The position numbers and the translations under genes were made by a program. DNA of 64,000 bases from Escherichia phage DK-13. The notes under the pieces were generated by a model. It saw nothing but the letters and a program-made list of their open reading frames with translations. It searched no databases and was not told where the DNA came from. The first letter of the stretch is position 1; every line of letters begins with the position of its first letter. Where the stretch lies: the sequence record MT611523.1. One strand, written 5' to 3'. Positions 261 to 55,738 of this stretch are shown piece by piece.

Positions 261-554
261 TTATTCACCTGTAACCCATTGAACAATTTTGCTATTGTCA
301 AATGAAGCATCGCAATACAGAACATAGTTATACTGCATAACGTCACCAGAAGTCAATTTGTCAGATACTTCTTTAACCATATCAGGGCGGTCACGTTTAG
401 TTATGTTCATAATATCAGCATAAATCTGATGTTCAACATCAGTCTGGTCGGCAGTCATAGACCACTCACAAAGGTCTTTATCAAGTCCAGCAGTAACTGG
501 AGCTGTACCACATGATGCTACGGTAAGAATTGCCGCGATTAATAACTTTTTCAT
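261..554 (-). CDS. sp: Periplasmic lipoprotein, Spackle (Sp/61.3)-like superinfection exclusion protein
   Basis: 97 aa; N-terminal signal peptide with lipobox-like LTVASCG; size and position in the 61.x block downstream of gene 41 match T4 sp; preceded by an early promoter cassette. Confidence 0.45.
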   Translation of the reverse strand: MKKLLIAAILTVASCGTAPVTAGLDKDLCEWSMTADQTDVEHQIYADIMNITKRDRPDMVKEVSDKLTSGDVMQYNYVLYCDASFDNSKIVQWVTGE

Positions 555-555
555 T

Positions 556-615
556 TCAATCTCCTCAGTAGTTGATAGGGATAATATACAGCATTATCCC
601 TTTGTTGTACACTAT
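556..615 (-). promoter_or_regulatory. PeSL-like early promoter cassette (family A)
   Basis: Minus strand reads GTGTAC, then inverted repeat GGGATAAT/ATTATCCC enclosing a -10-like TATATT, then conserved leader ATCAACTACTGAGGAG before the ATG at 554. Confidence 0.5.
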
Positions 616-1055: not shown

Positions 1056-1373
1056 TTAGATTTCCTCGCAGAAGGCCCAGGCAGCGTGATAAACTGTTGC
1101 GCCTTTAGTATCATTTAAACAAACCACGTCAACCGGTGCAATCACACGATAAAGACGGGGTTCTCCTCCATATGAGCGAGCTGCTCTTCCTGCATAGATA
1201 CGTGCCAAACCAATATCTTCAGTAAAAAACACACGCCCTAAATTTTTCTTACGCCCAACTTCTGACAGAACACCAGTTGCATCAGGAGGGCAAAGCATAT
1301 TTTGGATTCCAGCATTAGAGCTTGACCCATGATAATAAACTTTGTATTCTGCCTTGCAATCAATGGTTTTCAT
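1056..1373 (-). CDS. Hypothetical protein with YHGS motif
   Basis: 105 aa ORF immediately downstream of gene 41; contains VYYHGSSS, reminiscent of H-G-S NAD-binding motifs but too short to call. Confidence 0.45.
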   Translation of the reverse strand: MKTIDCKAEYKVYYHGSSSNAGIQNMLCPPDATGVLSEVGRKKNLGRVFFTEDIGLARIYAGRAARSYGGEPRLYRVIAPVDVVCLNDTKGATVYHAAWAFCEEI

Positions 1374-1412
1374 TTTATTCTCCAGTAGTTGATAGGGTCA
1401 TTATAACATAAG
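1374..1412 (-). promoter_or_regulatory. Early promoter / conserved leader (family A, partial)
   Basis: Minus strand TTATAATGACCCTATCAACTACTGGAG directly upstream of the ATG at 1373. Confidence 0.4.
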
Positions 1413-1436
1413 AAAAAGGGGCTGTAAGCCCCTTTT
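1413..1436 (-). terminator. Rho-independent terminator after gene 41
   Basis: Hairpin GGGGC-TGTAA-GCCCC flanked by A-run and T-run, immediately 3' of the gene 41 stop. Confidence 0.6.
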
Positions 1437-5266: not shown

Positions 5267-5505
5267 TTTGATTCCTTGATGATAATTACTTGTGCGTTTG
5301 ATTTACGTTCAGCAACGAGTGCCCAGATAAATGCAATAAACCATCCGACCATTGTCCAACCTAACAGAAGGTTAACAAAGAAGATTCCGCAATTACTTTT
5401 GGTACCACGCAGCAGCGCGATAATCCACGGCAGAAAATATGCCAGTGCAGCCAGGAAGAAAGAACCAGCCCCAAGAACAACAGTACCCGCAATTAATGTT
5501 TCCAT
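5263..5505 (-). CDS. imm: Imm superinfection immunity membrane protein
   Basis: 80 aa, two TM segments, YFLPWIIALLRG...NLLLGWTMVGWFIAFIWAL resembles the superinfection immunity family; directly upstream of gene 43 as in T4. Confidence 0.7.
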   Translation of the reverse strand: METLIAGTVVLGAGSFFLAALAYFLPWIIALLRGTKSNCGIFFVNLLLGWTMVGWFIAFIWALVAERKSNAQVIIIKESK

Positions 5506-5574
5506 TTTAATATCCTTAAGTTATTCATCAGTTGATGAGGTAATCATACGGCAATCCATTGCCGTTGTAAACAC

Positions 5575-19499: not shown

Positions 19500-19675
19500 A
19501 ATTTAATTTCCTTAGCTACTGAACAAAATACACCACGGTCACAAATCATTTTAATATTAAGGTCAATTATGGTATACCACACATCCAGGCTAGATATTTC
19601 AGTTACTAGAACAGCTTTGCCGTTGATTGAATAATACTGGTTGACTTTAATTTCTTTATCTTGGATAGTCATTAT

Positions 19676-19745
19676 GTTTTCCTCATCAGTAGTTGATGGG
19701 ATAATGATACATCATTCAAAGGGGCTTGTACACCCCTTTTTTAAT
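19676..19745 (-). promoter_or_regulatory. PeSL-like early promoter cassette (family A) with stem-loop
   Basis: Hairpin AGGGG-CTTGTACA-CCCCT containing a -35-like TGTACA, short inverted repeat AATGAT/ATCATT, conserved leader ATCAACTACTGA..GAGG. Confidence 0.5.
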
Positions 19746-21135: not shown

Positions 21136-22949
21136 TGGTGTTTAACCCTATGCATGATTTCTTTATTTTTGCCGAGATTAAATCCGCGTTCGTTCGGATT
21201 TCCCAAATAGCCGCATGTTCTTCTTATTGTGTTCATCTTTTTAGGGTCAGTTTCTCCACAAATAGAACAAACAAATCCGTTTTCAGTAGGAGTCATTTCA
21301 TGGGTACTTCCACATGTAAAACATTTATCCACTGGCATATTAACACCAAAATAATCTAAATGCTGTGCAGCATAATCCCATACAGCCTCAAGACCTTTTA
21401 GGTTATTTTTCATATCAGGAAGTTCAACATAAGAAATGTGACCGCCTGTCGCAATGAAATGATATGGGGCTTCACGAGAAATCTTTTCAAACGGGGTAAT
21501 ATTTTTTTCTACTGAAACATGGAAACTGTTAGTGTACCAGCCTTTATCGGTAACATCTTTTACACTTCCATATTTTTCGGTATCAAGTTTACAGAAGCGA
21601 TAGCACAGGTTTTCAGCAGGAGTAGAATACAAACTAAAAGCAAATCCGGTTCTTTCAGTCCACTGCTTAAGACGAGCATTCATTTTAGTCAAAATTTCTT
21701 GCCCAATATCACGACCGGCAAGAATATTCAATTCGTGAATACCGATGTATCCTAGGGACACTGAACTTCTACCGTTTTTAAATAACTCAATTATATCATC
21801 ATCAGGTTTAAGACGAACCCCGAATGCACCTTCTTGGTAAAGAATAGGAGCAACAGTCGCTTTAACTCCTTTTAAGGAACTAATTCTACACATCAAAGCT
21901 TCAAAACATAAATCCATTCGCTCATTGAACAATTCAGTAAATTTCTGTTCATTGAACTGTGTTCCAATATAAGAATCTAACGCAATACGAGGAAGATTCA
22001 GTGTTACAACACCAAGATTATTACGTCCATCAAGAATTTCATTACCAGTCGAATCTTTCCATACGCCCAAGAAACTACGGCAACCCATTGGAGAAACAGG
22101 AATAGATGAACCGGTGATAGCTTTATTGTTCTTAGCCGAAATGATGTCAGGATACATTCTTTTGCTTGCACACTCTAGAGCAAGCTGCTTAATATCATAG
22201 TTCGGGTCGTCTTTATAAAGATTAACACCTTCTTCAACAAACATAACAAGCTTAGGGAAAATAGGAGTTATCCCATCGCGACCGAGACCTTTAATACGAT
22301 TTTTCAGAATTGCTTTCTGAATCATTCGTTCGGTCCAGTCAGTTCCGGTACCAAATGTAATTGTTACAAAAGGCGTTTGTCCGTTTGAACTAAAGAGAGT
22401 ATTTACTTCATATTCATAAGCTTGGAATGCATCATATACGTCTTTTTCTGTTTTAGATTGAGCATAATTCAACGCATCAGTGATTTGCCATTTTTCCGCG
22501 TCCTCAATATGTTTCGCATAGGTACGTTTAACATAAGGAGAAAGTACTTTATCTACATTCGCAAAAGTCGTTCCGCCATATTGATGGGAAGCAACCTGCG
22601 CAGTAATTTGTGCCATAATTGCAGTAGCAACACTGATTGATTTAGGAGTTTCAATCTGTGCATTACCGAGCTTAAACCCGTTCTCAAGCATTCCTTTTAA
22701 ATCTACTAAACAGCAATTAGTAAATGGAAGAGCAGGGGAATAATCAATATCATGGAAATGAATAATTCCGCTTTCATGTGCTTTCATAATAAAAGACGCG
22801 ACCATATTTTTGGCAATGTGTTTAGATACAATACCAGCCATAAGGTCACGTTGAGTTGGAAAAACACGAGAATCTTTATTAGCATTCTCGTTTAAAAGGT
22901 CTTTATTAGTTTTATGAATCAATCCTTCAATTTCGTTTTCAATTGTCAT
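21132..22949 (-). CDS. nrdD: NrdD anaerobic ribonucleoside-triphosphate reductase
   Basis: 605 aa; C-terminal glycyl-radical motif RTCGYLG and Zn-ribbon cysteines; single uninterrupted ORF. Confidence 0.95.
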   Translation of the reverse strand: MTIENEIEGLIHKTNKDLLNENANKDSRVFPTQRDLMAGIVSKHIAKNMVASFIMKAHESGIIHFHDIDYSPALPFTNCCLVDLKGMLENGFKLGNAQIETPKSISVATAIMAQITAQVASHQYGGTTFANVDKVLSPYVKRTYAKHIEDAEKWQITDALNYAQSKTEKDVYDAFQAYEYEVNTLFSSNGQTPFVTITFGTGTDWTERMIQKAILKNRIKGLGRDGITPIFPKLVMFVEEGVNLYKDDPNYDIKQLALECASKRMYPDIISAKNNKAITGSSIPVSPMGCRSFLGVWKDSTGNEILDGRNNLGVVTLNLPRIALDSYIGTQFNEQKFTELFNERMDLCFEALMCRISSLKGVKATVAPILYQEGAFGVRLKPDDDIIELFKNGRSSVSLGYIGIHELNILAGRDIGQEILTKMNARLKQWTERTGFAFSLYSTPAENLCYRFCKLDTEKYGSVKDVTDKGWYTNSFHVSVEKNITPFEKISREAPYHFIATGGHISYVELPDMKNNLKGLEAVWDYAAQHLDYFGVNMPVDKCFTCGSTHEMTPTENGFVCSICGETDPKKMNTIRRTCGYLGNPNERGFNLGKNKEIMHRVKHQ

Positions 22950-29642: not shown

Positions 29643-30167
29643 TTATGCGAGAACCGTCTTTAAACGCTCTTCAAACTTCTGAAGGAGTACCTGGCGCTCT
29701 GCTCTTTGTTTGGTATAGGTTTCAATACGCTCTGAAGTGAGATTGTATTGTTCATTAACTGATTCCCGCATGAATTCAGGAATCTCTTTACATGCTTTGA
29801 TTTCATTGAACTTATCAAGCACCGCTTGTTGTTCAGCAATCAGACCATCATAATATTGGATATCTGATTTGATGTTTTGTACATCAGATTCAGTAGGCAT
29901 ATTTTTCTTCGCTCTTGCCGCTTGATATTCTGCATTAGTCTCTCTTGACCAGAACAAAGAGCGGTTTTTGTTGGTGTTTTTATACACATCAACAATACCA
30001 ACTGAATCAACAGTCGCAATCCAGTTCCAGGCGTTTTTATAAGTCTGACCACCTGATACTGTAATCTCACCCGCACAAGCAACATCATTAAAGAACTTAC
30101 TTTGTGCTTCTGATTTAAAATTACCATTATTGTAATTAATCAGATTAAAGATTGATTTGGCTTCCAT
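29643..30167 (-). CDS. Hypothetical protein
   Basis: 174 aa ORF preceded by a family-B promoter cassette. Confidence 0.5.
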   Translation of the reverse strand: MEAKSIFNLINYNNGNFKSEAQSKFFNDVACAGEITVSGGQTYKNAWNWIATVDSVGIVDVYKNTNKNRSLFWSRETNAEYQAARAKKNMPTESDVQNIKSDIQYYDGLIAEQQAVLDKFNEIKACKEIPEFMRESVNEQYNLTSERIETYTKQRAERQVLLQKFEERLKTVLA

Positions 30168-30235
30168 TTTATTCTCCAGTATTTGGTAACTCAGTATGGG
30201 AACATTATACGTCTATCCCCATACTATGTACACAT
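30168..30235 (-). promoter_or_regulatory. PeSL-like early promoter cassette (family B)
   Basis: Minus strand GTGTACAT...TATAATGTTCCCATACTGAGTTACCAAATACTGGAGAATAAA then ATG. Confidence 0.45.
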
Positions 30236-30538
30236 TTAATTAAAAGTTCTTTCAGTATTTTCACCGCTGAACCAGACGCTCTTAACGGCTTGCTGGGCGC
30301 GATGGAGCTGCTCTGCCATATAAACACCAAGGGCCTCAGCTTTACGTGCCCTGTGAGCTTCTGCGGCGACTATTTGCAACTTATCCATCATGATAAGAGC
30401 TTTACATTTCTCCTTCAGAGCATATCGCTTCTTCTCTTCTGGGGTTTTGACCATTCCTCTTAACTTGTGCATTTTCAACTTAAAATGGTCAGCAGATTTC
30501 AGACATGCCTCAATCATGTCAAGTTCATACTTTTTCAT
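30236..30538 (-). CDS. Hypothetical protein
   Basis: 100 aa basic ORF. Confidence 0.45.
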   Translation of the reverse strand: MKKYELDMIEACLKSADHFKLKMHKLRGMVKTPEEKKRYALKEKCKALIMMDKLQIVAAEAHRARKAEALGVYMAEQLHRAQQAVKSVWFSGENTERTFN

Positions 30539-30544
30539 AATTCC

Positions 30545-30751
30545 TCACTTGCGACGACGTTTTGGTAATGGTTTAGGGAAGAACATTGCTTTACCTGCAG
30601 GGGTCAAAGTCACACGCAAAGCATTACCAATACCAAGGGATGCTTTAACCAGACCTTTGGCTTTTAACTCACCAAATGCTTGACGTTGTTCAGGGTCACG
30701 AGTGTTAACCATCAGACCTTTTTCACCAGCAGCTTTGATTAATTCTAACAT
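30545..30751 (-). CDS. Small basic protein
   Basis: 68 aa, C-terminal KPLPKRRRK tail. Confidence 0.45.
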   Translation of the reverse strand: MLELIKAAGEKGLMVNTRDPEQRQAFGELKAKGLVKASLGIGNALRVTLTPAGKAMFFPKPLPKRRRK

Positions 30752-30830
30752 TTTATTCTCCGTTTGTTTATTTGGTAACTCAGTATGGAATCATTATGCC
30801 TCATGACCATCTGGTTGTACACATATACTA
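30752..30830 (-). promoter_or_regulatory. PeSL-like early promoter cassette (family B)
   Basis: Minus strand GTGTACA-N18-CATAATGATTCCATACTGAGTTACCAAATAAACAAACGGAGAATAAA then ATG; shares the intergenic region with the divergent plus-strand collagen-like gene. Confidence 0.45.
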
Positions 30831-30868: not shown

Positions 30869-31615
30869 ATGATTTTATCCGGAAGAACTGTTGATGAACT
30901 CAATGAAAAAGTCCAGGCTGCCTTGGCTGATAATTGGTATTTGTTTGGTTCTACTATGGTGTTGCCGAATACCCCTACAGATAGCAAAGAGCGTTTTTTC
31001 CAAACTATGTCCAGCTCGGAAACTCAGATACCGGGTCCGCCTGGTCCCAAAGGAGAACCGGGTGTACCCGGACCAAAAGGAGACCCAGGTGGGGATGGAA
31101 AATCTTCTTATCAGATATGGCTTGACTTGGGAAATACAGGAACTGTTGATGATTTTTTAACTGATACAGCAGGAAAGAGGGAAAAATCCGAGGTGTTTTG
31201 GAGTGGTATAAACGTTCTATTAACTAATGGTACGACTTCAAACATAATTAGTGTTTTAAAGGGGATTCCACCGACTGCAGGGACTCTATCTCCGTTTTTT
31301 AGAACCACTGATGATAAGTTGTGGCCATATAACCAAGACAGAAGCCTAATGTTTAAACTCAACCTTATTGGTAATTTTGCAGGAGCCTCGCAAGCTCGAA
31401 GTATAACATTAAATTTCGTTGGAACCAACGGAAACACTTATATACAGAATCGTCCGGAAAATGCTACAGATATTTTGTCTTTTACAACGTTCTTTAGCAT
31501 TGATAAAGATGGGGCAATGGCAACCAATGGTACAGCTATAACTGTTATGCCAAATGGCGGCAACTTTACAATAACCTCCGCATTGTTAGTAGCCGAACAA
31601 ACAGTGACTTCATAA
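30869..31615 (+). CDS. Collagen-like repeat fibre protein (Gly-X-Y repeats plus globular C-terminal domain)
   Basis: 248 aa; GPPGPKGEPGVPGPKGDPGGDG followed by SSYQIWLDLGNTGTVDDFL (post-collagen fibre motif); strong RBS AAGGAGAAAGTTT-ATG; only plus-strand gene in a 59 kb minus-strand block. Confidence 0.7.
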   Translation: MILSGRTVDELNEKVQAALADNWYLFGSTMVLPNTPTDSKERFFQTMSSSETQIPGPPGPKGEPGVPGPKGDPGGDGKSSYQIWLDLGNTGTVDDFLTDTAGKREKSEVFWSGINVLLTNGTTSNIISVLKGIPPTAGTLSPFFRTTDDKLWPYNQDRSLMFKLNLIGNFAGASQARSITLNFVGTNGNTYIQNRPENATDILSFTTFFSIDKDGAMATNGTAITVMPNGGNFTITSALLVAEQTVTS

Positions 31616-34862: not shown

Positions 34863-35065
34863 TATTCCACCACATATGATAATGAGAAAATTGCTGATGA
34901 AAGATGGGTAGCATCTTCTTCACACAGTTCAAATGGAGCTTTCTGTAAGAGTTCAACCACTTCTTCATCAGTGGCACTGTCCATAAAGATTGCATAATTA
35001 TTAAGATAGATAACAACCTCATCACCAGTATTAACTGCATCAATCTTGATATTTTTAATTCTCAT
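34862..35065 (-). CDS. Hypothetical protein
   Basis: 67 aa ORF preceded by a family-A promoter cassette. Confidence 0.45.
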   Translation of the reverse strand: MRIKNIKIDAVNTGDEVVIYLNNYAIFMDSATDEEVVELLQKAPFELCEEDATHLSSAIFSLSYVVE

Positions 35066-35130
35066 TGTGTTCTCCTCAGTAGTTGATGGGATAATAGTAC
35101 ACCCTTTTTATGGTGATGTAAACCCCCTAA
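35066..35130 (-). promoter_or_regulatory. Early promoter cassette (family A)
   Basis: Minus strand GTTTAC-N18-TACTAT then conserved leader TATCCCATCAACTACTGAGGAG then ATG. Confidence 0.5.
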
Positions 35131-38694: not shown

Positions 38695-39153
38695 TTAGAT
38701 ATAAATCACTTTTGTGCTAATTTTTCCTTCCAGACGATTAGAGTTAACAAACGCCATACGACAACACATGGTCGGAGACTTCCCAGGAATAGCGGGGTTA
38801 ACTGTCATTCCTAACCACAGGTTCTTGTCCGTGATTTCCAGACGAAGTGGACGGTAGTTCACATTCGGGTCAATTTGTGCTTCAACTTCCGGGAGTGGTT
38901 TCATCTCCAAGAATTCAACGATTTCTTTTACATGTGGTGTGATTTTTCCAAACAAGTCAAAAACATATTGTTCATCAATTTCACGTTGGATTGCACGGTC
39001 CAACAGGTGTGGACTGTACTTAATGAAGAATGCCTCAAGGCCTGCTTCTTTACAAGCCTTGTTGATAGCATTATTAATTTTGAGGAACTCCGTTTCAAAA
39101 ATGCGACGAAGTTTATTGCGGCGAATGTAAACACTTGAATCGATAGTAGTCAT
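38695..39153 (-). CDS. regB: RegB sequence-specific endoribonuclease
   Basis: Start at MTTIDSS gives 152 aa; strongly similar to T4 RegB (IRRNKLRR.FE.EF..INN...YS.HLLDRAIQREIDE.YVF.LF...CRMA..NS.RL.GK). Confidence 0.85.
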   Translation of the reverse strand: MTTIDSSVYIRRNKLRRIFETEFLKINNAINKACKEAGLEAFFIKYSPHLLDRAIQREIDEQYVFDLFGKITPHVKEIVEFLEMKPLPEVEAQIDPNVNYRPLRLEITDKNLWLGMTVNPAIPGKSPTMCCRMAFVNSNRLEGKISTKVIYI

Positions 39154-39209
39154 GATTATCTCCTTTTGTTTGATGGGATAATCATAACTCATTTCAATCT
39201 GCTTGTACA

Positions 39210-39789
<580 letters not shown>

Positions 39790-40981: not shown

Positions 40982-41290
40982 TTAGAAAGAACCAGAGCCT
41001 TTAATTGTGTTCTGGCGACCTTTATTTTCTAATTCAGAATGGTCGATTTCGTATGCTTGTGCTACACCAAAGGCCTTTTTAACTTTAGCTAAAGAACCTT
41101 TAGATGTAACAATATTAAAAGTATTACCTTTGGTAAAATCAACCAAATCAACCAAATCAACTTGTACACCCTGTTTACCGAGGCTTGCGACAATAGCATC
41201 AACATATTGTTGGTCTAAAGTACCTTGGACTCCAATTTGGAATGCTTTAGGGGCTTTGGCTTCTGTGATAAATTCTTGATAAGTTTTCAT
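40982..41290 (-). CDS. Internal protein (capsid-targeted, IP family)
   Basis: N-terminus MKTYQEFITEA matches the T4 internal-protein capsid targeting sequence; start taken at that Met. Confidence 0.6.
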   Translation of the reverse strand: MKTYQEFITEAKAPKAFQIGVQGTLDQQYVDAIVASLGKQGVQVDLVDLVDFTKGNTFNIVTSKGSLAKVKKAFGVAQAYEIDHSELENKGRQNTIKGSGSF

Positions 41291-41338
41291 TTTATATTCC
41301 ATTGTTTGGCTGATAAAATCATTATACAACCTTTTTAG

Positions 41339-41755
41339 TTAAGCGTACACAGCTTTCCCATAGTATTTGTACCAAGCAGGCTTTTGAGAAATTTTCTCAT
41401 TCAGTCTGGCTTGACTGATTTCAATTGACCAGATTGATGGTTGATAATCATTCTTCCATTCATCAGGAATATCAGTTAAATCTTGGGTAGAAATATCTTT
41501 TATGTTAAACCCTCGCTTTAAACATTCCGCAATAAGTTCTTGATGCCGGTTTTTAAGGAACAAAAGCTTATCATAAAAGAAGGTGACATGACCAGTCCCT
41601 AAAAGGAAAGATGATGGGATTTTAAAGTCAGAAACCTTTTTACCATTTTGCACATGCTTACGAACAGCACCAAACACGCGAGGAAGCTCACGATATTCAG
41701 CCATAAGGTGTTGGTCAGCAAGTTCAGATACCAGGGTCAAATTAATGCGAGTCAT
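41339..41755 (-). CDS. denV: DenV endonuclease V (pyrimidine dimer DNA glycosylase)
   Basis: 138 aa; near-identical to T4 endo V over most of its length ([35 protein letters not shown]...). Confidence 0.95.
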
Positions 41756-41812
41756 GTTTGTTCTCCGTAGTTGATAGGGTCATTATAACCCTATCGTTTG
41801 GAGATGTACATC
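41756..41812 (-). promoter_or_regulatory. PeSL-like early promoter cassette (family A) with stem-loop
   Basis: Inverted repeat GATAGGGT/ACCCTATC enclosing TATAAT, then leader CAACTACGGAG before the denV ATG. Confidence 0.5.
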
Positions 41813-42080: not shown

Positions 42081-42088
42081 ATTTTACC

Positions 42089-43875: not shown

Positions 43876-44561
43876 TACCAGCCCTCCATAGGGAATTCCA
43901 GATAAACTTGAGCATTAACGCGGATTTCGTTTGTAATCTTTTTAACACGGTCAGTGTTACGAGATACACGACCAAACCAACGCCAACCGTTACTTACTGC
44001 GCGAGAACCTGTATGCCATGTCTGCCAATCAAACTGGAGCAACGTGCGGTCAGGAGCATCCCACTTGGTTAATTCATTGGACTCAATTTTTTCCAGAACT
44101 TCTTTATGCCACTGGCGATAGATAAGTTCGCCTTCAGGAATCTGACTAAATTGCGCAGTTCCGGTTGCAAAATAAGTAGGACACACATCAGCGTTAACAA
44201 GACCAAGAATATGTTCAGAATGGTAACGAGGATTATCATAATCAGGTTGCCCTGCGGTAATAAAGTGTTGACCAACCGGAATATCCGGGCGTGGTACATC
44301 ATCATGGTGATAACCTGGGATAGCGGGGTACCAACCAGGCATCAGCATATGAACCCGAGAATCAAATACAACCTGGTCGGTGTTCCAATCATCCGGCAGA
44401 CTCATGATAAAGCTACGAGTAATAGGGCCACCATTGTCAAAAGCGAAAGCCAATGAGCTGTTAAAGAACATAGTTTCGTTTTTGATTTTATCATTAGAAA
44501 TTTTACCAGCGAAACTGCCTACTGCATGAGCTTGAGAATTAAAAGTTTTTGGACCGTTCAT
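43875..44561 (-). CDS. Hypothetical protein
   Basis: 228 aa Trp/Pro-rich ORF. Confidence 0.5.
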   Translation of the reverse strand: MNGPKTFNSQAHAVGSFAGKISNDKIKNETMFFNSSLAFAFDNGGPITRSFIMSLPDDWNTDQVVFDSRVHMLMPGWYPAIPGYHHDDVPRPDIPVGQHFITAGQPDYDNPRYHSEHILGLVNADVCPTYFATGTAQFSQIPEGELIYRQWHKEVLEKIESNELTKWDAPDRTLLQFDWQTWHTGSRAVSNGWRWFGRVSRNTDRVKKITNEIRVNAQVYLEFPMEGW

Positions 44562-44620
44562 AATATTTTCCTCATTGATTGTGGGACCATTGTGTCATAG
44601 CCCCACTTGGATGTACACAA

Positions 44621-45580
44621 TTATTTTTCGAAAGGGCGAATTAAATGCTGGTTAGCTTTGAAACGTTTAACATAGTCTTCGTGACCCAGGGTGTTATACA
44701 TATTAACCACTTCCTGGTAATGTTCCCAGGCATACTCACGGAACCATCCAGAAGTAATGGAGGTGCAGACTTTTTCCAGCGCAATATGGAAGCTCACGGA
44801 TGGAGAGATATTGAACTCATTGGGAACCTGCGAACGCTCCAGAGCAAGTACACATGCTTCTTCATAAACCCCTGCCAGTTTAATAATCTCAGGGAGTGCT
44901 TCAAATTTTTCACGCGAGGTCATAACTTCTGAATCATCTTTCATATAGAACTTATATGCAGGCTTATCAGCAAGCGCCACGGCCTCGTGGATGGAGTCAT
45001 GGTCAAGGGTATAGATTGTATCATTAAAGAAAGTTTTCTTGCCCACGTCTAGTTTAGGGTGACTATATGACAATGTTTCTGCCTGGCGCTGCAGCATGAT
45101 TTTATGCAGTTCGTCATTAAGAACAACACCCTTATTGCGAAGGTAATTAATATGACTCATAGTCTTCAGGAAGAATGGATTGTTCTTCAGGTAACGATGA
45201 GACAATTTAATTGCCAGACAAATATCAGGAGTCGCCCAATAGAAACCTGTAAGACGGTCTTTCTTAATATGATTTTCAGCGTATTTCAAGAGACGATAAC
45301 TTGAGGTAAAATCTTCCTCTTGCAACTCATCAGTCAGCTCACGAACGCTTGTCAGCGCGCGGACAATGTACGCTTCAAAATAGGTTTCTTTACCATTGTG
45401 CATACATTTAAAAGCTTGGACATCAGGGTTATCCACAGGAACATGAGCACCGAACATACGTGCTTTAAAGTGGTTCCAGGAGCCCTGGTCAGCGATAAAG
45501 TCCCAATCAGAGTTTTCAATTTTCTGACTTTCAATCAGACCAGAGTTATGTAATGCACGAGAACCAATAACTAACATCAT
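44621..45580 (-). CDS. Hypothetical protein
   Basis: 319 aa ORF preceded by a family-A promoter cassette. Confidence 0.5.
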   Translation of the reverse strand: MMLVIGSRALHNSGLIESQKIENSDWDFIADQGSWNHFKARMFGAHVPVDNPDVQAFKCMHNGKETYFEAYIVRALTSVRELTDELQEEDFTSSYRLLKYAENHIKKDRLTGFYWATPDICLAIKLSHRYLKNNPFFLKTMSHINYLRNKGVVLNDELHKIMLQRQAETLSYSHPKLDVGKKTFFNDTIYTLDHDSIHEAVALADKPAYKFYMKDDSEVMTSREKFEALPEIIKLAGVYEEACVLALERSQVPNEFNISPSVSFHIALEKVCTSITSGWFREYAWEHYQEVVNMYNTLGHEDYVKRFKANQHLIRPFEK

Positions 45581-45655
45581 AATATTTTCCTCATTAGTTG
45601 ACGAGATAATGATACTACGTTTCTTTAGACTTGTATACTAAATCTTGTACATAAT
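45581..45655 (-). promoter_or_regulatory. Early promoter cassette (family A variant)
   Basis: Minus strand TGTACA...GTAGTATCATTATCTCGTCAACTAATGAGGAAAAT then ATG. Confidence 0.4.
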
Positions 45656-46127: not shown

Positions 46128-46136
46128 TTTTATTCC

Positions 46137-46624: not shown

Positions 46625-46633
46625 AACGTTTCC

Positions 46634-48191: not shown

Positions 48192-48785
48192 TTACTTAAG
48201 TGAATTAATGTATTCTTCAATGTCAGCGGACGTGGTATCCACACCAACCTGTGGGCCTTTGAAGGTTTCAACACGCATCAGAGTGTCTTCAATATCAATC
48301 TTAGTCAATGCAGCGATTTCAACAACATCATCTGCAGTCGCAATACCCAGGGCAGATACCTTACGGGTTTCGCGGATGTATTCCAGTTTAACAGCTAGTT
48401 CCTGACGAGAATCATCCAACTCTTTAACTTTCAATTTAATTTCATTACGCATTTCAACATAATCATCTGCCTTCTTACGAAGTTGTTTAGCAGTACGACG
48501 ATACAGGAGACCCAGTTTAGCATGGACCTGGACATCCGCACCATCAGCAATCAGTTTGCGGATTTCACGCTCTTTTGAAGCGGCGAGTTGGTCTTTTTCA
48601 TTCGCTAACTCACGGATGCGTTTTTCTTCATTAACCGACTTAACGTGGGCGGTCTGGAGCTCAGTAATCTTGTCAATCAGGGTAGACGCTGCTTGAGTAT
48701 ATTGGTCTTCAATAGACAGATTTTTTGTCATTGCAGTACCCAGTTTGGAGCGGATGAATTCAACAAGTTTCTTTAAAGTATTCAT
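48192..48785 (-). CDS. Coiled-coil protein (possibly PspA/IM30-like)
   Basis: 197 aa, almost entirely heptad-rich, charged; resemblance to PspA is tentative. Confidence 0.45.
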
Positions 48786-48862
48786 GGTATTTCCTTCAGT
48801 TGGTTAATATTTTATTATCCAATGTTTTATTGTGTAACTCAGTATGGAATCATTATGCCTTA
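48786..48862 (-). promoter_or_regulatory. PeSL-like early promoter cassette (family B) with stem-loop
   Basis: Hairpin GGGGG-TATACAAG-CCCCC, then CATAATGATTCCATACTGAGTTACAC leader. Confidence 0.45.
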
Positions 48863-48892
48863 AAGCAGGGGGCTTGTATACCCCCTTTTGAA

Positions 48893-49336
48893 TTAAATTT
48901 CAAATTCTTTGCGGAAGTTGGAAGCATAAGACTGAACTGATGCTTTGTTGAATCCAAACTCACGCACAATCATATCAATAACAGCTCTGCGAGCAGCACC
49001 ATTAGACATATTAACAGTTTTGAACATATCATAGCATAAATCTTTGTTGCTCATACCGGAGCGTTTAGGTGCCTTACGTTCAGCTTTTGGTTCAGTCTTA
49101 GGAGTAGGTTTAACTTCTGGTTTAACCTGTCCATCATTCAGACCTTTAAAAATTTTACCTGCCAGAGTTGCCAGTTTAGCAGCTTCGCCACGAGTGATAC
49201 CAAATACTGCCGGGTTAAATGAAATACCTTCAGCTGTCAGACGTTTGAAGAACATACGTGCGGCGGATTGTGCTTCAGCTTCAGAAGAGTTGTTTAATGC
49301 CAGTTTAATGTACTTAACCAGTTTTGAAGTTTTCAT
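48893..49336 (-). CDS. Hypothetical protein with conserved C-terminal domain (paralog A)
   Basis: 147 aa; C-terminal NGAARRAVIDMIVREFGFNKASVQSYASNFRKEF shared with 49789-50214. Confidence 0.5.
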   Translation of the reverse strand: MKTSKLVKYIKLALNNSSEAEAQSAARMFFKRLTAEGISFNPAVFGITRGEAAKLATLAGKIFKGLNDGQVKPEVKPTPKTEPKAERKAPKRSGMSNKDLCYDMFKTVNMSNGAARRAVIDMIVREFGFNKASVQSYASNFRKEFEI

Positions 49337-49409
49337 TTTATTATCCCGTTTGTTTATTTGGTAACTCAGTATGGAATCATTATGTCTTAGTTAAATTCCA
49401 AAGTACACA
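49337..49409 (-). promoter_or_regulatory. PeSL-like early promoter cassette (family B)
   Basis: Minus strand ...CATAATGATTCCATACTGAGTTACCAAATAAACAAACGGGATAATAAA then ATG. Confidence 0.45.
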
Positions 49410-49706
49410 TTAATTTTCAGAAGTTGGGAAATAAACTTCAAAGTCATACATGTTTACTACCGCAGACGCGATTGCCTGGTACTGCATACCTAAGAAAGTT
49501 TTCTTATTCTTGCGCCACAAGTTAACCATTTCTGTTTTGATGCATGCCAGGGAATAGTTGGATGCAGGATACTGTTTGATGATTGCAACAACTTCTTCAG
49601 AAGCAGTTTCACACAATTCATTCAGTTGAGCTTCAATTTTAGCAGAAATGATTGCTTTGTTTTCTTCTTGAGCTTGGGTAGCGTGCCATGCAGGTGCGTT
49701 AAACAT
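49410..49706 (-). CDS. Hypothetical protein
   Basis: 98 aa ORF. Confidence 0.45.
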   Translation of the reverse strand: MFNAPAWHATQAQEENKAIISAKIEAQLNELCETASEEVVAIIKQYPASNYSLACIKTEMVNLWRKNKKTFLGMQYQAIASAVVNMYDFEVYFPTSEN

Positions 49707-49788
49707 TTTATTCTCCAGTGTTTTATTTGGTAACTCAGTATGGGATAATTATACACTATCCCACCTGGAAGTAAAACACTTTTCTCAA
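49707..49788 (-). promoter_or_regulatory. PeSL-like early promoter cassette (family B)
   Basis: Minus strand ...TATAATTATCCCATACTGAGTTACCAAATAAAACACTGGAGAATAAA then ATG. Confidence 0.45.
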
Positions 49789-50214
49789 TTATTTTTGAGC
49801 TTTGCGGAAGTTGGAAGCATAAGACTGAACAACAGTCTTTTTGATATCATGGGTGTTAACCAGAACATCAATCAGGGCGCGGCGAGCTGCACCATCTGCC
49901 ATATCAATTTCTGCAAATGCCTGGAAGCAAATGTCGCGGGCGTTACCAGATTTAGACTGGATTTTTTCTTCTTTAACTTCTTCAATTGGGAATTCAATCA
50001 TTTCAGCTTGGATTAATTCAATGATAGATTCTTTTGACTGTTTGGTGTTTACCTTCAGTTCAGAATTAAGGGACTTGGCGATGGCAACAATCTGGGTTGA
50101 AGTCAGATGAATAAGTGCATCTTCACGAATGCAGATTTCACATACTTCGTCAGCAACCATTTTGTTGGTGATGCGGGTAACAGAGAATGCAGAGGTCAGG
50201 GTCAGAAAGTTCAT
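49789..50214 (-). CDS. Hypothetical protein with conserved C-terminal domain (paralog B)
   Basis: Start at MNFLTLTS; C-terminal DGAARRALIDVLVNTHDIKKTVVQSYASNFRKAQK. Confidence 0.5.
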   Translation of the reverse strand: MNFLTLTSAFSVTRITNKMVADEVCEICIREDALIHLTSTQIVAIAKSLNSELKVNTKQSKESIIELIQAEMIEFPIEEVKEEKIQSKSGNARDICFQAFAEIDMADGAARRALIDVLVNTHDIKKTVVQSYASNFRKAQK

Positions 50215-50295
50215 TTTATTTCTCCAAAGTTTTGTTTGATTCAGTGTGTAACTCAGTATGGAATCATTATGCATCCAGTCAATTCGGATGTACAC
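50215..50295 (-). promoter_or_regulatory. PeSL-like early promoter cassette (family B)
   Basis: Minus strand GTGTAC-N18-CATAATGATTCCATACTGAGTTACAC... Confidence 0.45.
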
Positions 50296-53288: not shown

Positions 53289-53546
53289 TTACTCACCTTT
53301 AGAGATTTTATCCATAACGAAAGAGATTGAACCAATTAAAAATGCAACTACTAAAGAGATTATATTCTCAGAAGTTGAAAGCATATTCAACATAAAGCCA
53401 GCAAACATGCTAAAACCAAAAGCGGTAACAGCAACAAGGGCAGTAACATTTCTAATTAATTCGCAACGTTTCATTTTATTCTCCTCACTTTTTGATAGGT
53501 CTAGGTTATGATATACTAGACCAGTAACTGTTTTATTCAGCACCAA
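53289..53546 (-). CDS. Small membrane protein
   Basis: 85 aa, two hydrophobic helices. Confidence 0.45.
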   Translation of the reverse strand: MVLNKTVTGLVYHNLDLSKSEENKMKRCELIRNVTALVAVTAFGFSMFAGFMLNMLSTSENIISLVVAFLIGSISFVMDKISKGE

Positions 53547-53754
53547 CGGCTTTCAAAAGTTTTTTAAGGTTGACAATACCACGGGCAGAGAAAGTAACCT
53601 TACCACCTGTTTCAGATACAGAACCTGTAAGTTTTGCCAATTTATCATTTGGTAACTTTTTAAAATCCTTCAGTGTACCATCAAAAGTTTTAGATTGAAT
53701 CGGCAATTCGTCATGCATTTTAGCTTCGTTAATAAATTCTTGATACGTTTTCAT
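53533..53754 (-). CDS. Internal protein (capsid-targeted), array member 5
   Basis: 73 aa; N-terminus MKTYQEFINEA; own family-A promoter cassette upstream. Confidence 0.6.
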   Translation of the reverse strand: MKTYQEFINEAKMHDELPIQSKTFDGTLKDFKKLPNDKLAKLTGSVSETGGKVTFSARGIVNLKKLLKAVGAE

Positions 53755-53811
53755 TTTTTGACCCTCAGTAGTTGATGGGATAATTATACGCTATCCCATT
53801 TAAAAGTACAC
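53755..53811 (-). promoter_or_regulatory. PeSL-like early promoter cassette (family A) with stem-loop
   Basis: Minus strand GTGTAC-N17-TATAAT inside inverted repeat GGGATA/TATCCC, then leader ATCAACTACTGAGGG. Confidence 0.5.
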
Positions 53812-54066
53812 TTATTTTTTAGGGATACGATAGTAACGCATCTCAACATCTTTCTGCTTGTACCACTTTTTGATAAGGTCTTCAGAACCGCTAATAGTAA
53901 CGATGTCATAACGACCATCATGCGATACTTCAGCACTTAACTGCATGAAATTGTCCAGTGAACGACGGAATTCCTCATTGGAAAAACTGCCACGCGGCGA
54001 ACCAACATAAGCAAACTCAACTTTTGCATTTGCAGATTCAGTAATAAATTCTTGATAAGTTTTCAT
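53812..54066 (-). CDS. Internal protein (capsid-targeted), array member 4
   Basis: Start at MKTYQEFITES; own family-A promoter cassette upstream. Confidence 0.6.
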   Translation of the reverse strand: MKTYQEFITESANAKVEFAYVGSPRGSFSNEEFRRSLDNFMQLSAEVSHDGRYDIVTISGSEDLIKKWYKQKDVEMRYYRIPKK

Positions 54067-54122
54067 GTAGTCTCCAGTAGTTGATGAGATAATCATACTA
54101 CAGTTATCCCATCGCGTATACT
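54067..54122 (-). promoter_or_regulatory. PeSL-like early promoter cassette (family A)
   Basis: Minus strand ...GGGATAACTGTAGTATGATTATCTCATCAACTACTGGAG then ATG. Confidence 0.45.
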
Positions 54123-54654: not shown

Positions 54655-54987
54655 TTATTTATAAAGTTTTGCCAGTTCTTTACGTCCACGAGCAGACATA
54701 ATAAATTGTTCATCGCCAATTTTAAAATATGCCATACCACCGTCAACAGCGATACCAATTTCTTTAGTACCTTCTTTGCCTTTCCACTTGCCACCAGATT
54801 TCAGGACAGCTTCAACTGCAGCTTTGGAATATTTGGACGTTTGAAAACGTTCATTACCAATCTGAAAGAAAACACCATCTGCATTTTTGGTTAAACCAAA
54901 TTTCAGAGAGCCTTCACTATCATCAATTGATTTAGTCTCATTGATGGCGGATTCAGCTAAAAACTCGTTGTAAGTCTTGATGTTCAT
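54655..54987 (-). CDS. Internal protein (capsid-targeted), array member 1 (ipI position)
   Basis: 110 aa; N-terminus MNIKTYNEFLAES; immediately downstream of acb1/57B, where T4 carries ipI. Confidence 0.55.
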   Translation of the reverse strand: MNIKTYNEFLAESAINETKSIDDSEGSLKFGLTKNADGVFFQIGNERFQTSKYSKAAVEAVLKSGGKWKGKEGTKEIGIAVDGGMAYFKIGDEQFIMSARGRKELAKLYK

Positions 54988-54999
54988 TTTAACTCCGTT

Positions 55000-55027
55000 T
55001 GTTCGTTAGTGTAGGTGCATAATACTG
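55000..55027 (-). promoter_or_regulatory. Perfect 11-bp-stem hairpin between acb1 and the IP array
   Basis: GTGTAGGTGCA-GTATTAT-GCACCTACAC on the minus strand; no U-run after it, so probably an RNA processing or stability element rather than a terminator. Confidence 0.4.
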
Positions 55028-55047
55028 CACCTACACTCATTTGTATA

Positions 55048-55738
<691 letters not shown>

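Follow-up and report, generated by a model that had tools for sequence, protein, structure and literature searches.

Positions 30,168 to 30,830 of the 64,000-nt window (the whole stretch of phage DK-13 DNA that was analysed) contain two predicted early promoter cassettes on the minus strand, one upstream of nrdC.8 and the other upstream of an RB69-ORF102c-like ORF and nrdC.9. DK-13 is a T4-like phage of the VR7 group, Gaprivervirus. Similar cassettes recur throughout the early region of the window, and most fall into two groups according to the sequence of the leader that separates the promoter from the start codon.

Probable early promoter cassettes in the DK-13 window

We searched the window for the two leader sequences, allowing up to three mismatches. 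The family A leader, ATCAACTACTGAGGAG, has 10 matches where 0.41 are expected, and every match is on the minus strand. The family B leader, GATTCCATACTGAGTTACCAAATAAA, has four matches where none is expected. A search of the window for repeats recovered all six B copies as a single repeat family (D4; 30186, 30775, 48834, 49361, 49730 and 50248), and grouped eight A copies as another (D1). Lastly, a profile HMM trained on the cassette copies and applied with a cut-off of at least 18 bits identified exactly 20 promoters, all on the minus strand, with the next matches scoring below 9 bits. Each of the 20 is directly upstream of an ORF, on the coding strand. One degenerate copy (53529), likewise on the minus strand, is found in addition to these 20. 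The cassettes are listed in the table.

A preliminary description of this DNA had listed 14 cassette positions. All 14 bear the motifs attributed to them, far above chance: each position is the base immediately upstream of a start codon, and every one matches a cassette. The census adds promoters of imm (5572), nrdC.4 (27567), regB (39210) and ip7 (41350), an ORF134c-like promoter (44618), an internal protein (IP) promoter (55048) and the degenerate copy (53529).

Predicted early promoter cassettes of the DK-13 window (ATG, position of the start codon; SD, Shine-Dalgarno sequence; dG in kcal/mol)
Coordinates	Strand	Leader	Gene or unit driven	ATG	Promoter elements (+1 predicted)	Other features
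552..612	-	A	sp (spackle)	554	-35 612-606; -10 TATATT 588-583; +1 A 576	Hairpin GGGATAAT/ATTATCCC encloses or overlaps -10; z=-3.75
1371..1429	-	A	RB69-ORF040c-like ORF + dmd	1373	-35 GCTTACA	-35 in loop of GGGGC/GCCCC, then T-run, terminator-like; 3' end GGAGAATAAAATG (RegB/S1 consensus)
5503..5572	-	A-like, ATCAACTGATGA	imm			CGGCAAT/ATTGCCG hairpin within spacer
19670..19733	-	A	55.6	19672		-35 in GGGG/CCCC hairpin; top HMM score, 35 bits
27508..27567	-	neither A nor B	nrdC.4			Orthologue of T4 nrdC.4 promoter
30165..30233	-	B	nrdC.8	30167	-35 30233-30227; -10 TATAAT 30209-30204; +1 A 30197	12-bp hairpin 30226-30215/30203-30192 around -10, dG -18.0, z=-3.96; 3' end GGAGAATAAAATG
30749..30822	-	B	RB69-ORF102c-like ORF + nrdC.9	30751	-35 30822-30816; -10 CATAAT 30798-30793; +1 A 30786	3' end GGAGAATAAAATG
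35063..35123	-	A, exact match	mobD.5	35065		Terminator-like hairpin + T-run immediately upstream
39151..39210	-	A-like	regB			In read-through RNA, -10/discriminator predicted to pair with GGAGATAATCAT (SD + start)
41288..41350	-		Internal protein (ip7-like)			Recombination junction 41261-41293, within SD/start/capsid-targeting-sequence repeat
41753..41810	-	A	denV	41755		Two-part hairpin, TCTCC...GGAGA and GATAGGGT/ACCCTATC; -10 in loop, SD paired; dG -18.9, z=-7.5; indel breakpoint at -35 edge
44559..44618	-		RB69-ORF132c-like ORF			8-bp hairpin enclosing -10
45578..45638	-	A variant	JS98-ORF122c-like ORF	45580		
48783..48881	-	B	e.6 (T4 e.6 orthologue)	48785		-35 in GGGGG/CCCCC hairpin
49334..49408	-	B	147-aa ORF	49336		TGGAAT/ATTCCA arms flank -10
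49704..49777	-	B	98-aa ORF	49706		Hairpin TGGGATA/TATCCCA plus TTCCAG/CTGGAG, SD paired; z=-3.55
50212..50295	-	B	141-aa ORF	50214		Canonical terminator 50354-50338 immediately upstream
53472..53529	-	ATCAAAAAGTGAGGAGAATAAAATG	trna.4-like gene			Degenerate 'half' cassette; hairpin GGTCTAG/CTAGACC, -10-like loop, without good -35
53752..53811	-	A	Internal protein	53754		
54064..54121	-	A	Internal protein	54066		Hairpin GATGGGATAA/TTATCTCATC, one G.U pair
54985..55048	-		Head of internal protein gene array			11-bp hairpin GTGTAGGTGCA/TGCACCTACAC around -10; dG -21.5, z=-5.75

A cassette begins with an A-rich tract and GTGTACA at -35; after 17 bp of spacer comes a TATAAT-like hexamer at -10, and then, in order, a discriminator rich in C, an A as the predicted +1, the leader, GGAG and ATG. 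Across the 20 promoters, conservation amounts to 7.8 bits at the -35, 7.1 bits at the -10 and 5.9 bits from -6 to -1, and an A/T-rich, UP-like tract (consensus aaaaaa at -44 to -39) contributes 3.2 bits. The first 20 transcribed nucleotides carry 10.5 bits over all 20 copies, rising to 18.9 bits within family A and 26.2 bits within family B. The -35 is GTGTAC, GTTTAC, GTATAC, GCTTAC or ATGTAC in 19 of the 20 promoters, and GTTTTAC in the B copy at 49730; the -10 is TATAAT, CATAAT, TATGAT, TATCAT, TATATT, TATTAT, TACTAT or CACAAT. The spacer is 17 bp long in 18 of 20 promoters and 16 bp in the other two. With the degenerate copy included, the predicted +1 is an A in 18 of 21 copies; among these A residues are positions 576, 1393, 5536, 19697, 30197, 30786, 35087, 39174, 41775, 44582, 48845, 49372, 49741, 50259, 53776, 54085 and 55012.

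The two leaders that had been taken to define separate families are real, but they are better seen as two variants attached to a single promoter architecture. Family A copies have the GTGTAC or GTTTAC previously ascribed to them at -35, but some have GCTTAC, ATGTAC or GTATAC, and the leader proposed for this family is found at the A positions, but three copies deviate from it at three positions. The similarity between copies extends well beyond the σ70 hexamers. A generic σ70 scan found 64 sites where 48 are expected and gave the cassettes scores of merely 9 to 10 out of 12, and hence does not discriminate them. We conclude that the cassettes are defined by a T4-type consensus, not the E. coli consensus.

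Host σ70 RNA polymerase would bind the A-rich tract, the GTGTACA at -35 and the TATAAT-like hexamer at -10, and transcription would start at the A just after the C-rich discriminator. The resulting leader of 19 to 60 nt would present a strong Shine-Dalgarno sequence, GGAG or GAGG, 5 to 9 nt ahead of the ATG; GGAG takes this role in 13 of the 20. Leaders of primary transcripts fold at ~0 kcal/mol, and are thus essentially unstructured. We propose that, with an unstructured leader and a strong Shine-Dalgarno sequence, the first ORF would be efficiently translated immediately after infection. Promoter activity, start sites, RegB cleavage and hairpin function are predicted throughout.

Relation to T4 early promoters, RegB/S1 sites and PeSLs

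The cassettes had been thought to bracket exactly those genes that differ from T4. This is not the case, since 11 of the 20 drive T4 orthologues: sp, imm, 55.6, nrdC.4, nrdC.8, mobD.5, regB, denV, e.6 and two T-even-type IP genes. In T4 itself, promoter-like sequences precede nrdC.4, nrdC.8, mobD.5, regB, denV, e.6, trna.4 and the IP genes; we take these to be the experimentally mapped early promoters. Promoters are found at orthologous nrdC.4, nrdC.8, mobD.5, regB, denV, e.6 and IP genes in both phages. The T4 homologous promoters at the same genes bear the leader CTATCAACTAC(TGAGGAG). At its trna.4, T4 has an identical family A leader, CTATCAACTACTGAGGAGAATAAAATG, and leaders related to it are present at nrdC.8, nrdC.10, denV and e.8 of T4.

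The promoters of the two phages share a GTTTAC-type -35, a 17-bp spacer, a TATAAT-like -10, an A-rich upstream tract and conserved positions beyond the hexamers, the last of these in keeping with the "additional regions of consensus" described for T4 early promoters (PMC2988021). They differ in that the -35 is mostly GTGTAC in DK-13 and GTTTAC in T4, and in that most T4 early promoters have an extended -10 (TGn; T4 copies read TGGTAYTAT), whereas T at -15 and G at -14 occur in only 2 of the 20 DK-13 copies. The CCC discriminator of DK-13 is as reported for RB69-type promoters, which have C at -3 to -1 (PMC1524935). We found no paper describing the promoters of VR7-group phages.

Leader A occurs in 716 phage records, T4 trna.4 among them. 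To judge from this distribution and from its presence at the T4 trna.4, denV and nrdC.8 promoters, family A is a pan-T4-group early leader. Leader B, a further difference from T4, is found in only 38 phage records (a number that includes GenBank/RefSeq duplicates and two Morganella hits), almost all of them from Gaprivervirus, with 6 to 11 places per genome; by the same measure, family B is a variant specific to Gaprivervirus. When IMG/VR was scanned with a 14-nt pattern from the B leader, most matches were isolated chance occurrences in contigs of unrelated origin, and GenBank phage records were used instead; several copies of the pattern were found together only in VR-like genomes.

The phage encodes an orthologue of regB. 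The strong consensus for RegB/S1 cleavage of T4 early mRNAs is GG*AGRAYARAA (PMC3014915). GGAGRAYARAA has six matches in the window where 0.45 are expected, and five of the six are at cassette 3' ends (1383-1373, 30177-30167, 30761-30751, 49716-49706 and 53484-53474, with cleavage predicted between the second G and the A of GGAG), so that both cassettes in positions 30,168 to 30,830 carry one. The Shine-Dalgarno region GGAGAATAAAA found in many copies thus corresponds to the published strong RegB/S1 site, and is a candidate target for cleavage. Compared with the T4 sites, the five cassette ends match exactly and are predicted targets; the remaining cassettes depart from the 11-nt consensus.

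The preliminary description had also likened the cassettes to promoter early stem-loop elements (PeSLs), which consist of an AT-rich tract, a σ70-type promoter, a stem-loop mostly between the -35 and -10 or overlapping the -10, a Shine-Dalgarno sequence and an ATG (PMC2839356; PMC4122927). This published anatomy is present in the DK-13 early promoter and leader units. The PeSLs of RB49/phi1, PST/T4 and nt-1/KVP40 are the same composite intergenic unit, with a stem-loop of variable position; as in DK-13, they form tandem arrays with single ORFs, and indels are located at or between copies. A few DK-13 copies have stems made of a G-run and a C-run, as in RB49. Most DK-13 stems, by contrast, are AT-richer, enclose the -10 and are not followed by a T-run, and are therefore unlike intrinsic terminators.

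The elements flanking IP genes in T-even phages, in the account that Arbiol 2010 gives of Repoila 1994 (PMC2839356), are likewise based on early promoters and have AT-rich stems. In DK-13, elements of this kind, built on early promoters and bearing AT-rich stems, lie between the IP genes at 41.0-42.1 kb and 53.5-55.0 kb. All across the early region, however, genes other than those for IPs are driven by the same types of cassette as well. Taken together, these comparisons indicate that the DK-13 cassettes are probably T4-type early promoters fused to standardised translation-initiation leaders, that is, PeSL-like regulatory cassettes. The combination of early promoter, leader and ribosome-binding site is a design already known in T4-family phages, and is ordinary biology for the group.

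Cassettes in the gain and loss of small genes

PeSLs have been proposed to drive modular gene shuffling, and the preliminary description extended this idea to DK-13. Comparison of flanking gene content across relatives did reveal swaps at cassette boundaries, with hybrid cassettes at two sites. At the first site, the unit 49383..49704 is precisely absent from TH40, TH41 and TH55, which instead have a hybrid cassette in which the promoter of the B copy at 49730 is fused to the leader of the B copy at 49361, with 50 nt of junction homology. At the second (53499..53730), six relatives have the IP promoter joined directly to trna.4, with an overlap of 31-47 nt, and the intervening IP gene, at 53533-53754 in DK-13, is absent. 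A third site (45593..45578) has matching junction homology of 16-31 nt, and there relatives carry an extra ORF between two cassette copies. As read from these genome alignments, the hybrid cassettes show that crossovers inside the shared leader have occurred. The longest junction homologies, 31-50 nt, are all at cassettes or the adjoining IP start region.

Variation is also seen at the upstream edge of the cassettes. Eight indel events end 0-14 nt from a -35. In the cassette at 30749..30822, homology with six of seven relatives breaks off exactly at the -35 G (30822), and in VR7 an extra restriction-endonuclease-like ORF is inserted at the -35 edge of the promoter at 44559..44618. The leader of the e.6 cassette is a fusion, and at this site each of the six TH relatives has one more ORF unit, of 340 bp. 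Where relatives differ in their IP genes, the body of the gene has been replaced, from the conserved N-terminal start that encodes MKTYQEFI as far as the next cassette. Overall, genes that end just upstream of a -35 are more often variable than others (8/19 vs 15/99; OR 4.1, p=0.012).

We propose that the same 30-60 bp, recurring many times in one orientation, act as homology patches; as the hybrid cassettes show, crossovers within these patches have added or removed single units of a cassette and its ORF, and the -35 edge is probably also a preferred boundary for gene replacement. The main alternative is that the cassettes are ordinary early promoters, similar to each other as a result of common descent and shared constraints for strong transcription and translation, with no special role in shuffling; an indel of a whole gene has to end in intergenic DNA, and this alone would explain why indels coincide with cassettes. 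Of the 49 indel events relative to the other genomes, 14 touch a cassette, and under a uniform null breakpoints are enriched in cassettes (p=6e-7). With gene junctions alone as the null, this enrichment is lost: cassettes hold 15 of the 65 breakpoints at junctions vs 16.8% expected (p=0.12), or vs 25% expected when junctions are weighted by intergenic length (p=0.69). In this respect the cassettes, in this data set, differ from PeSLs. Moreover, cassette-driven genes are no more variable than other genes (4/20, p=1.0), and most of the 52 indel events are at junctions without cassettes. These observations make the alternative a serious contender. Nonetheless, we lean against it, since it does not anticipate the hybrid cassettes in relatives, the long homologies at cassette junctions, the events ending so close to a -35, or the variability of the genes just upstream. 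We conclude that a few cassettes served as crossover points in the gain and loss of small genes. The wider claim that cassettes drive modular shuffling holds for some indels, whose crossovers are inside shared cassette sequence, but as a general rule it is weakly supported given the lack of enrichment under the junction null.

Hairpins around the -10 and the nature of the cassettes

In about half of the cassettes, the spacer, which is not itself transcribed from the cassette, can pair with the 5' end of the RNA that starts there, and hence the -10 sits in the loop of a hairpin. The inverted repeat around the -10 that had been described for family A is confined to roughly half of the copies; the hairpin is absent or insignificant in the other half of the 20 promoters, and about a third have no convincing stem. 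Shuffling of the spacer gave a mean z of -2.08 for the 20 promoters, with p<0.05 for eight of them. In a swap control with 25 cassette classes from nine genomes, each spacer paired with its own transcript 3.6 kcal/mol better than with swapped partners (Wilcoxon p=8e-5). The sense strand folds better than the antisense strand (p=0.016; p=0.007 for the hairpin classes alone). T4 promoters have the same feature (mean z=-2.6; 7/14 with p<0.05). A GC-rich stem covers the -35 in three copies, and two copies have a terminator immediately upstream. At the gathering threshold, the only Rfam matches in the window are two tRNAs, neither of them at a cassette.

For a hairpin to form with the -10 in its loop, transcription would have to come through the cassette from a promoter further upstream, and we propose that the hairpin would thereby insulate each unit from its neighbours. 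The read-through hairpin would also pair the Shine-Dalgarno sequence in roughly one cassette in four: such pairing is predicted in ~5 of 20 read-through folds (denV, regB, nrdC.4 and the B copies at 49730 and 50248), and not for the others. Insulation might operate by masking of the ribosome-binding site, by stopping or pausing of polymerase, or by protection of the upstream 3' end after RegB cleavage; the GC-rich hairpins over the -35, with their T-runs, resemble terminators. There is a precedent in the control of T4 e, soc, 49 and I-TevI, where the proximal promoter is inside a helix that only longer, upstream-initiated transcripts form. The Shine-Dalgarno sequences of T4 denV, regB and nrdC.8 (and mobD.5) are predicted to be paired in read-through RNA, as at DK-13 denV, regB and nrdC.4. 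However, the proximal promoters of e, soc, 49 and I-TevI are late promoters, such that the helix delays expression, whereas those of DK-13 are early, and in most DK-13 copies the helix misses the Shine-Dalgarno sequence. We suggest only tentatively, and with some doubt, that the hairpin has been selected as an RNA-level insulator and serves the early genes of the T4 group in general.

It is also conceivable, although we consider it unlikely, that the hairpins have no function, and arose through templated (quasi-palindrome) mutation or simply because TATAAT-like sequences are partly self-complementary. Evidence from sequence variation fits such an origin. Covariation of the stem-loops, a check named in the preliminary description, is seen when the arms of different copies are compared, but comparison of orthologues yielded a single double compensatory change. 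Close relatives differ at paired and at unpaired positions to a similar extent (36/218 vs 43/250, p=0.90), and single changes in the arms break pairs about as often as they preserve them (17 vs 18). One pair of the hairpin at 44559..44618 appears as T-A, T.G and C-G across relatives. The restriction of significant hairpins to about half of the cassettes also fits. On the other hand, arms of 8-14 bp reach well past the -10 hexamer, an arm is specifically complementary to its partner in the same cassette, folding is biased to the sense strand, and the feature recurs with different arm sequences at orthologous T4 promoters and, according to the literature, in RB49/phi1 PeSLs (PMC2839356), all of which argue for function.

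Alternatively, the inverted repeats could work as DNA, either as operators for a dimeric phage regulator that shuts off early promoters or as cruciform targets of a recombination nuclease. Their centre coincides with the -10, so that a bound repressor would obstruct polymerase; the mechanism by which early promoters are shut off is not fully understood (PMC3014915), and it has been speculated that PeSL stems are bound by a recombination protein (Arbiol 2010; PMC2839356). We nevertheless regard this as improbable. The arms differ from cassette to cassette yet stay complementary, and their register relative to the -10 shifts (pair sums of -22 vs -18), which fits base pairing and not a common protein site; this variation in arm sequence and register led us to reject the operator or repressor-site reading. 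In addition, tolerance of G.U pairs and better folding of the sense strand would not be expected of a symmetric DNA structure or protein site.

Finally, the many copies, their sharp upstream boundaries at the -35 and the occurrence of one B-leader variant (TTAACAAA) at different loci in different relatives might suggest that the cassettes are themselves a mobile element, MITE-like or homing-site-like, spreading between intergenic regions; we rejected this as very improbable, since orientation, promoter spacing and context (a fixed distance directly before an ORF) are all constant, there are no terminal inverted repeats, target duplications or Rfam matches to the cassettes, and the presence of type A at orthologous positions from T4 to DK-13 fits vertical descent with occasional recombination.

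Regarded as early promoter and leader units, the cassettes show at a glance where the early transcription units of this phage group lie, with 20 promoters, predicted starts and likely RegB targets. T4-like promoter cassettes have been crossover sites in individual cases, but in the present comparison they are not hotter than other gene junctions, a result that tempers the popular idea of cassette-driven shuffling. More striking is the placement of genes that are new or have been replaced: they end immediately ahead of a promoter, where the unit that follows would still be expressed undisturbed. The hairpin around the -10, which is conserved and biased to the sense strand, can be tested as a candidate RNA-level insulator between early genes. 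If it does act in this way, expression of a small early ORF would depend almost wholly on the promoter of that ORF, and the promoter-inside-hairpin logic of e, soc, 49 and I-TevI would extend to the whole class of early promoters in phages from T4 to Gaprivervirus.

Cassettes, their leaders and their relation to T4 early promoters

The preliminary description gave 14 coordinates for two families of repeated cassettes (early promoter, leader and Shine-Dalgarno (SD) sequence before an ATG), and all 14 lie one base upstream of a start codon with a cassette before the start. A repeat search of the window, independent of leader matching, returned groups of eight family A and six family B copies. 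Allowing three mismatches, we found 10 matches to the family A leader (0.41 expected) and four to the family B leader (0 expected), all on the minus strand. A profile HMM made from an alignment of the copies identified exactly 20 promoters, again all on the minus strand, at 18-35 bits, with the next best matches below 9 bits; a 21st copy, at 53529, is degenerate, with hairpin and leader but without a -35. Alignment on the -10 gives a 17-bp spacer for 18 copies and a 16-bp spacer for two, and A occurs 7 nt downstream of the -10 in 18 of 21 copies, the degenerate one included. Information content is 7.8 bits for the -35, 7.1 for the -10, 5.9 for positions -6 to -1 and 10.5 for the first 20 transcribed nt, and leaders within a family reach 18.9 bits (A) or 26.2 bits (B). 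Hence, the copies are far more alike than unrelated sigma-70 promoters, rather than no more similar than these, the outcome that had been named as counting against the cassettes. A generic sigma-70 scan of the window gave 64 sites, little more than the 48 of shuffles, and did not single them out.

T4 has comparable cassettes at the same genes, including trna.4 (GTTTACATAGGGTTTTAGCTGTGATACTATTACCCTATCAACTACTGAGGAGAATAAAATG). Leaders of the form CTATCAACTAC... occur at T4 nrdC.8, nrdC.10, e.8 and denV, and T4 promoters orthologous in position to window cassettes are found also at nrdC.4, mobD.5, regB, e.6 and the internal protein (IP) genes. The 37-nt family A consensus matches 716 phage records, from T4-like phages of Escherichia, Klebsiella, Shigella and Yersinia, with T4 trna.4 among the matches; the family B leader is found in only 38 records, nearly all Gaprivervirus, at 6-11 sites per genome. 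We conclude that the family A leader is ancestral to the T4 group and the family B leader genus-specific. The families are leader variants of one architecture, with CCCAT(CAACT)ACTGAG and the 3' end GGAGAATAAAATG common to both. T4 early promoters have consensus additional to the -35, TGn, -10 and UP elements (Hinton 2010, PMC2988021), and RB69-type promoters prefer C at -3 to -1 (Nolan 2006, PMC1524935). The window cassettes fit both statements, although only 2 of 20 copies have the TGn extension of T4 early promoters.

In T4 early mRNAs, strong RegB/S1 cleavage sites have the consensus GG*AGRAYARAA (Uzan and Miller 2010, PMC3014915), and the recurrent cassette end GGAGAATAAAATG (repeat families D5, D7 and D10) agrees with it. 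Exact matches to this consensus number six in the window (0.45 expected), and five are cassette ends, including both (30167 and 30751) in the region 30168-30830, which holds the nrdC.8 and 30822 cassettes (cassettes are named by gene driven or by a coordinate). The SD sequence is GGAG in 13 of 20 copies, and the window encodes a regB orthologue. From these sequences we infer that the leaders would suit strong early translation, then inactivation by RegB.

Stems in and around the promoters

The -10 had been placed inside a short inverted repeat. That repeat is real and exceeds an accident of TATAAT symmetry, but about half of the cassettes have no significant -10 hairpin, and some have other stems instead. 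We folded spacer, -10 and leader as RNA and compared them with 500 shuffles in which only the spacer was shuffled; mean z was -2.08 for the 20 window promoters (p < 0.05 in eight) and -2.6 for T4 promoters (p < 0.05 in 7 of 14). From the predicted +1, the same leaders fold at about 0 kcal/mol, and the SD sequence lies inside the predicted helix in T4 denV, regB, nrdC.8 and mobD.5. Stem-loop covariation, a proposed check, was borne out in 100 distinct cassette variants (25 classes) from the window, T4 and seven relatives (VR7 and the unannotated Gaprivervirus genomes TH22, TH40, TH41, TH44, TH55 and TH57): a spacer pairs 3.6 kcal/mol better with its own downstream segment than with those of other classes (Wilcoxon p = 8e-5), which is covariation between cassette copies. 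There are limits to this evidence: in close relatives, columns that pair vary as much as columns that do not (36/218 and 43/250), and single changes in hairpins are about evenly divided between pair-breaking (17) and pair-keeping (18). Folding is stronger for the sense strand than for the antisense strand, by a mean of -1.3 kcal/mol (p = 0.016), or -2.2 kcal/mol for the 14 hairpin classes (p = 0.007), and one pair of the 44618 promoter occurs among relatives as T-A, T.G and C-G. Given this bias and these variants, we regard a structure formed by read-through RNA as more likely than a feature of the DNA or a protein-binding site.

Stem positions also vary in promoter-early stem-loops (PeSLs), published T4-type intergenic units (Arbiol et al., PMC2839356), and the spread among window cassettes is exactly as described for them. 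In anatomy, the proposed match to PeSLs stands, and the cassettes are T4-type early promoter/leader units. At the 48881 cassette, the stem over the -35 (GGGGG/CCCCC, 48867-48886) scores as a plus-strand terminator because the cassette's upstream A-tract is a T-run on that strand; the 1429 and 19733 stems look similar by eye. The -35 stems could stop antisense transcription, besides or in place of sense read-through.

Stems, repeats and genes of the window
Feature	Position (strand)	Detail
-10 hairpin arms	denV cassette	GATAGGGT/ACCCTATC
-10 hairpin arms	IP cassette 53811	ATGGGATA/TATCCCAT
-10 hairpin arms	nrdC.8 cassette (in 30168-30830)	AGTATGGGGA/TTCCCATACT
-10 hairpin arms	cassette 55048	GTGTAGGTGCA/TGCACCTACAC
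-10 hairpin arms	cassette 49408	TGGAAT/ATTCCA
GC-rich stem over -35, with T-run	cassettes 1429, 19733, 48881	
Stem inside spacer	cassette 5572	
Terminator just upstream of cassette	50354-50338	
Conserved IP-type gene start (D3)	41234-41293, 42024-42083, 53698-53757, 54010-54069, 54309-54368, 54590-54649	MKT(Y/F)QEF...
31-nt exact repeat	48907-48937, 49800-49830	ORF 3' ends (...VQSYASNFRK)
33-nt repeat (D11)	46112-46164, 46338-46370, 46629-46661	boundaries of three small tandem ORFs
238-aa ORF	11937-12653 (+)	HNH-like motif (weak Pfam match)
156-aa and 605-aa ORFs	20665-22949 (-)	2.4-kb block missing in VR7 and TH44
248-aa ORF	30869-31615 (+)	Phage_tail_NK domain (Sf6-type tail needle knob), E=2.6e-32
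regB orthologue	38695-39153	
tRNA genes	51879-52028 (-)	two only
242-aa ORF	57919-58647 (-)	cysteine-rich; weak treble-clef zinc finger match, DUF4379

Gene gain and loss at cassettes

Chaining the window to the seven relatives revealed 52 distinct events, each an indel or a replacement, of which the early region holds 49. In fourteen, an end falls in a cassette; for eight of these it lies 0-14 nt on the upstream side of a -35 (618, 1436, 30822 (twice), 41810, 44628, 53825 and 54129), and for the others in the shared leader or SD. Two of the events are textbook examples. TH40, TH41 and TH55 lack the unit 49383..49704, a 98-aa ORF with a B cassette on either side, and have instead a hybrid cassette in which the B49730 promoter is joined to the B49361 leader, the overlap being 50 nt. 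None of the six TH phages has the IP gene 53499..53730; in them, trna.4 is fused to the IP promoter. Relatives differ at a third site, 45593..45578, by an additional ORF flanked by two copies of the 45638 cassette. The upstream edge of the 1429 cassette is, in relatives, the exact insertion point of a module of B cassette and ORF.

Relative to a uniform null, cassettes hold more breakpoints than expected (15/81 against 3.9%, p = 6e-7), but relative to a gene-junction null they do not, whether by count (15/65 against 16.8%, p = 0.12) or by intergenic length (15/65 against 25%, p = 0.69). Cassette-driven genes are no more variable than other genes (4/20), whereas genes ending just upstream of a cassette are (8/19 against 15/99, OR 4.1, p = 0.012). 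Thus, crossovers sometimes use the cassettes as substrate, and gene replacement favours the -35 edge as its boundary; that cassettes drive modular gene shuffling in general, as had been suggested for elements of this type, is not demonstrated in this comparison.

Nor do cassettes bracket exactly the genes that differ from T4, as had been claimed: sp, imm, 55.6, nrdC.4, nrdC.8, mobD.5, regB, denV and e.6 are cassette-driven T4 orthologues, alongside cassette-driven non-T4 ORFs. Comparison of flanking gene content showed that the unit at 30168-30830, nrdC.9 (a T4 gene, DUF7203) and an RB69-ORF102c-like ORF, is present in all seven relatives; immediately upstream of the 30822 cassette lies the segment that varies. 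The early region also holds, on the opposite strand, the 248-aa ORF, which is bounded exactly by the -35 of that cassette on one side and by the next minus-strand gene on the other. Its sequence includes a collagen-like G-x-y stretch. Six of the seven relatives lack the ORF, TH40 being the one that has it; only 8 of 645 records matching the surrounding 4-kb query region cover at least 80% of that region.

Other exchanges were seen at repeats. Six genes share an N-terminus typical of T-even internal proteins, and in relatives replacement affects the gene body, from the conserved start up to the following cassette; one junction (41261-41293) falls within the start itself. The 31-nt repeat is shared by two otherwise diverged paralogous ORFs, each copy just upstream of a family B cassette, and homology with TH57 breaks at 49830; this repeat suggests gene conversion or recombination in coding 3' ends too. 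A B-leader variant, GTTAACAAATAAA in place of GTTACCAAATAAA, is found in three TH relatives and at three separate cassette loci, which hints at exchange among cassette copies or among phages. The D11 repeat, where relatives have one unit more (212-258 bp, 25-nt junction overlap), is a second indel-associated repeat system, independent of promoters.

Gene content and place among T4-type phages

The 29-33 kb region matches Escherichia phage vB_EcoM_RZ at 97% and other VR7-group members (Tevenvirinae, Gaprivervirus) at 91-95%. With VR7 annotation transferred, the window holds the T4 early/middle region, nearly all on the minus strand: sp/dmd/41 to 43, 45, 46, 47, 55, 49, nrdC, mobD, rI, tk, vs, regB, denV, e, and the tRNA and internal-protein loci. 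The T4 counterpart of the tRNA region has eight tRNAs and two small RNAs, and relatives have indels of 318-728 bp here. Judged by sequence and position, the 156-aa and 605-aa ORFs look like nrdG and nrdD, respectively. The 242-aa ORF is missing in all six TH relatives (726-770 bp indel), and further single-gene indels occur in relatives at 57101 and 59099-59131. The 238-aa ORF, a 773-bp insertion between 45.2 and 46 found in none of the seven relatives, carries a zinc-ribbon-like motif, CPHCG...NM(N/K)RWHFDNC, twice (30-nt repeats at 12341 and 12605), and is probably a free-standing homing endonuclease.

We found no paper on promoters of the VR7 group; hence, the cassettes are a new, VR7-group member of an already known kind, the T4-type early promoter/leader that answers the PeSL description. 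Slightly beyond the literature consulted are the genus-specific B leader, the quantitative evidence for a hairpin enclosing the -10 (covariation, occurrence in T4 as well, sense bias), the RegB consensus at cassette ends and the breakpoint result under a gene-junction null.
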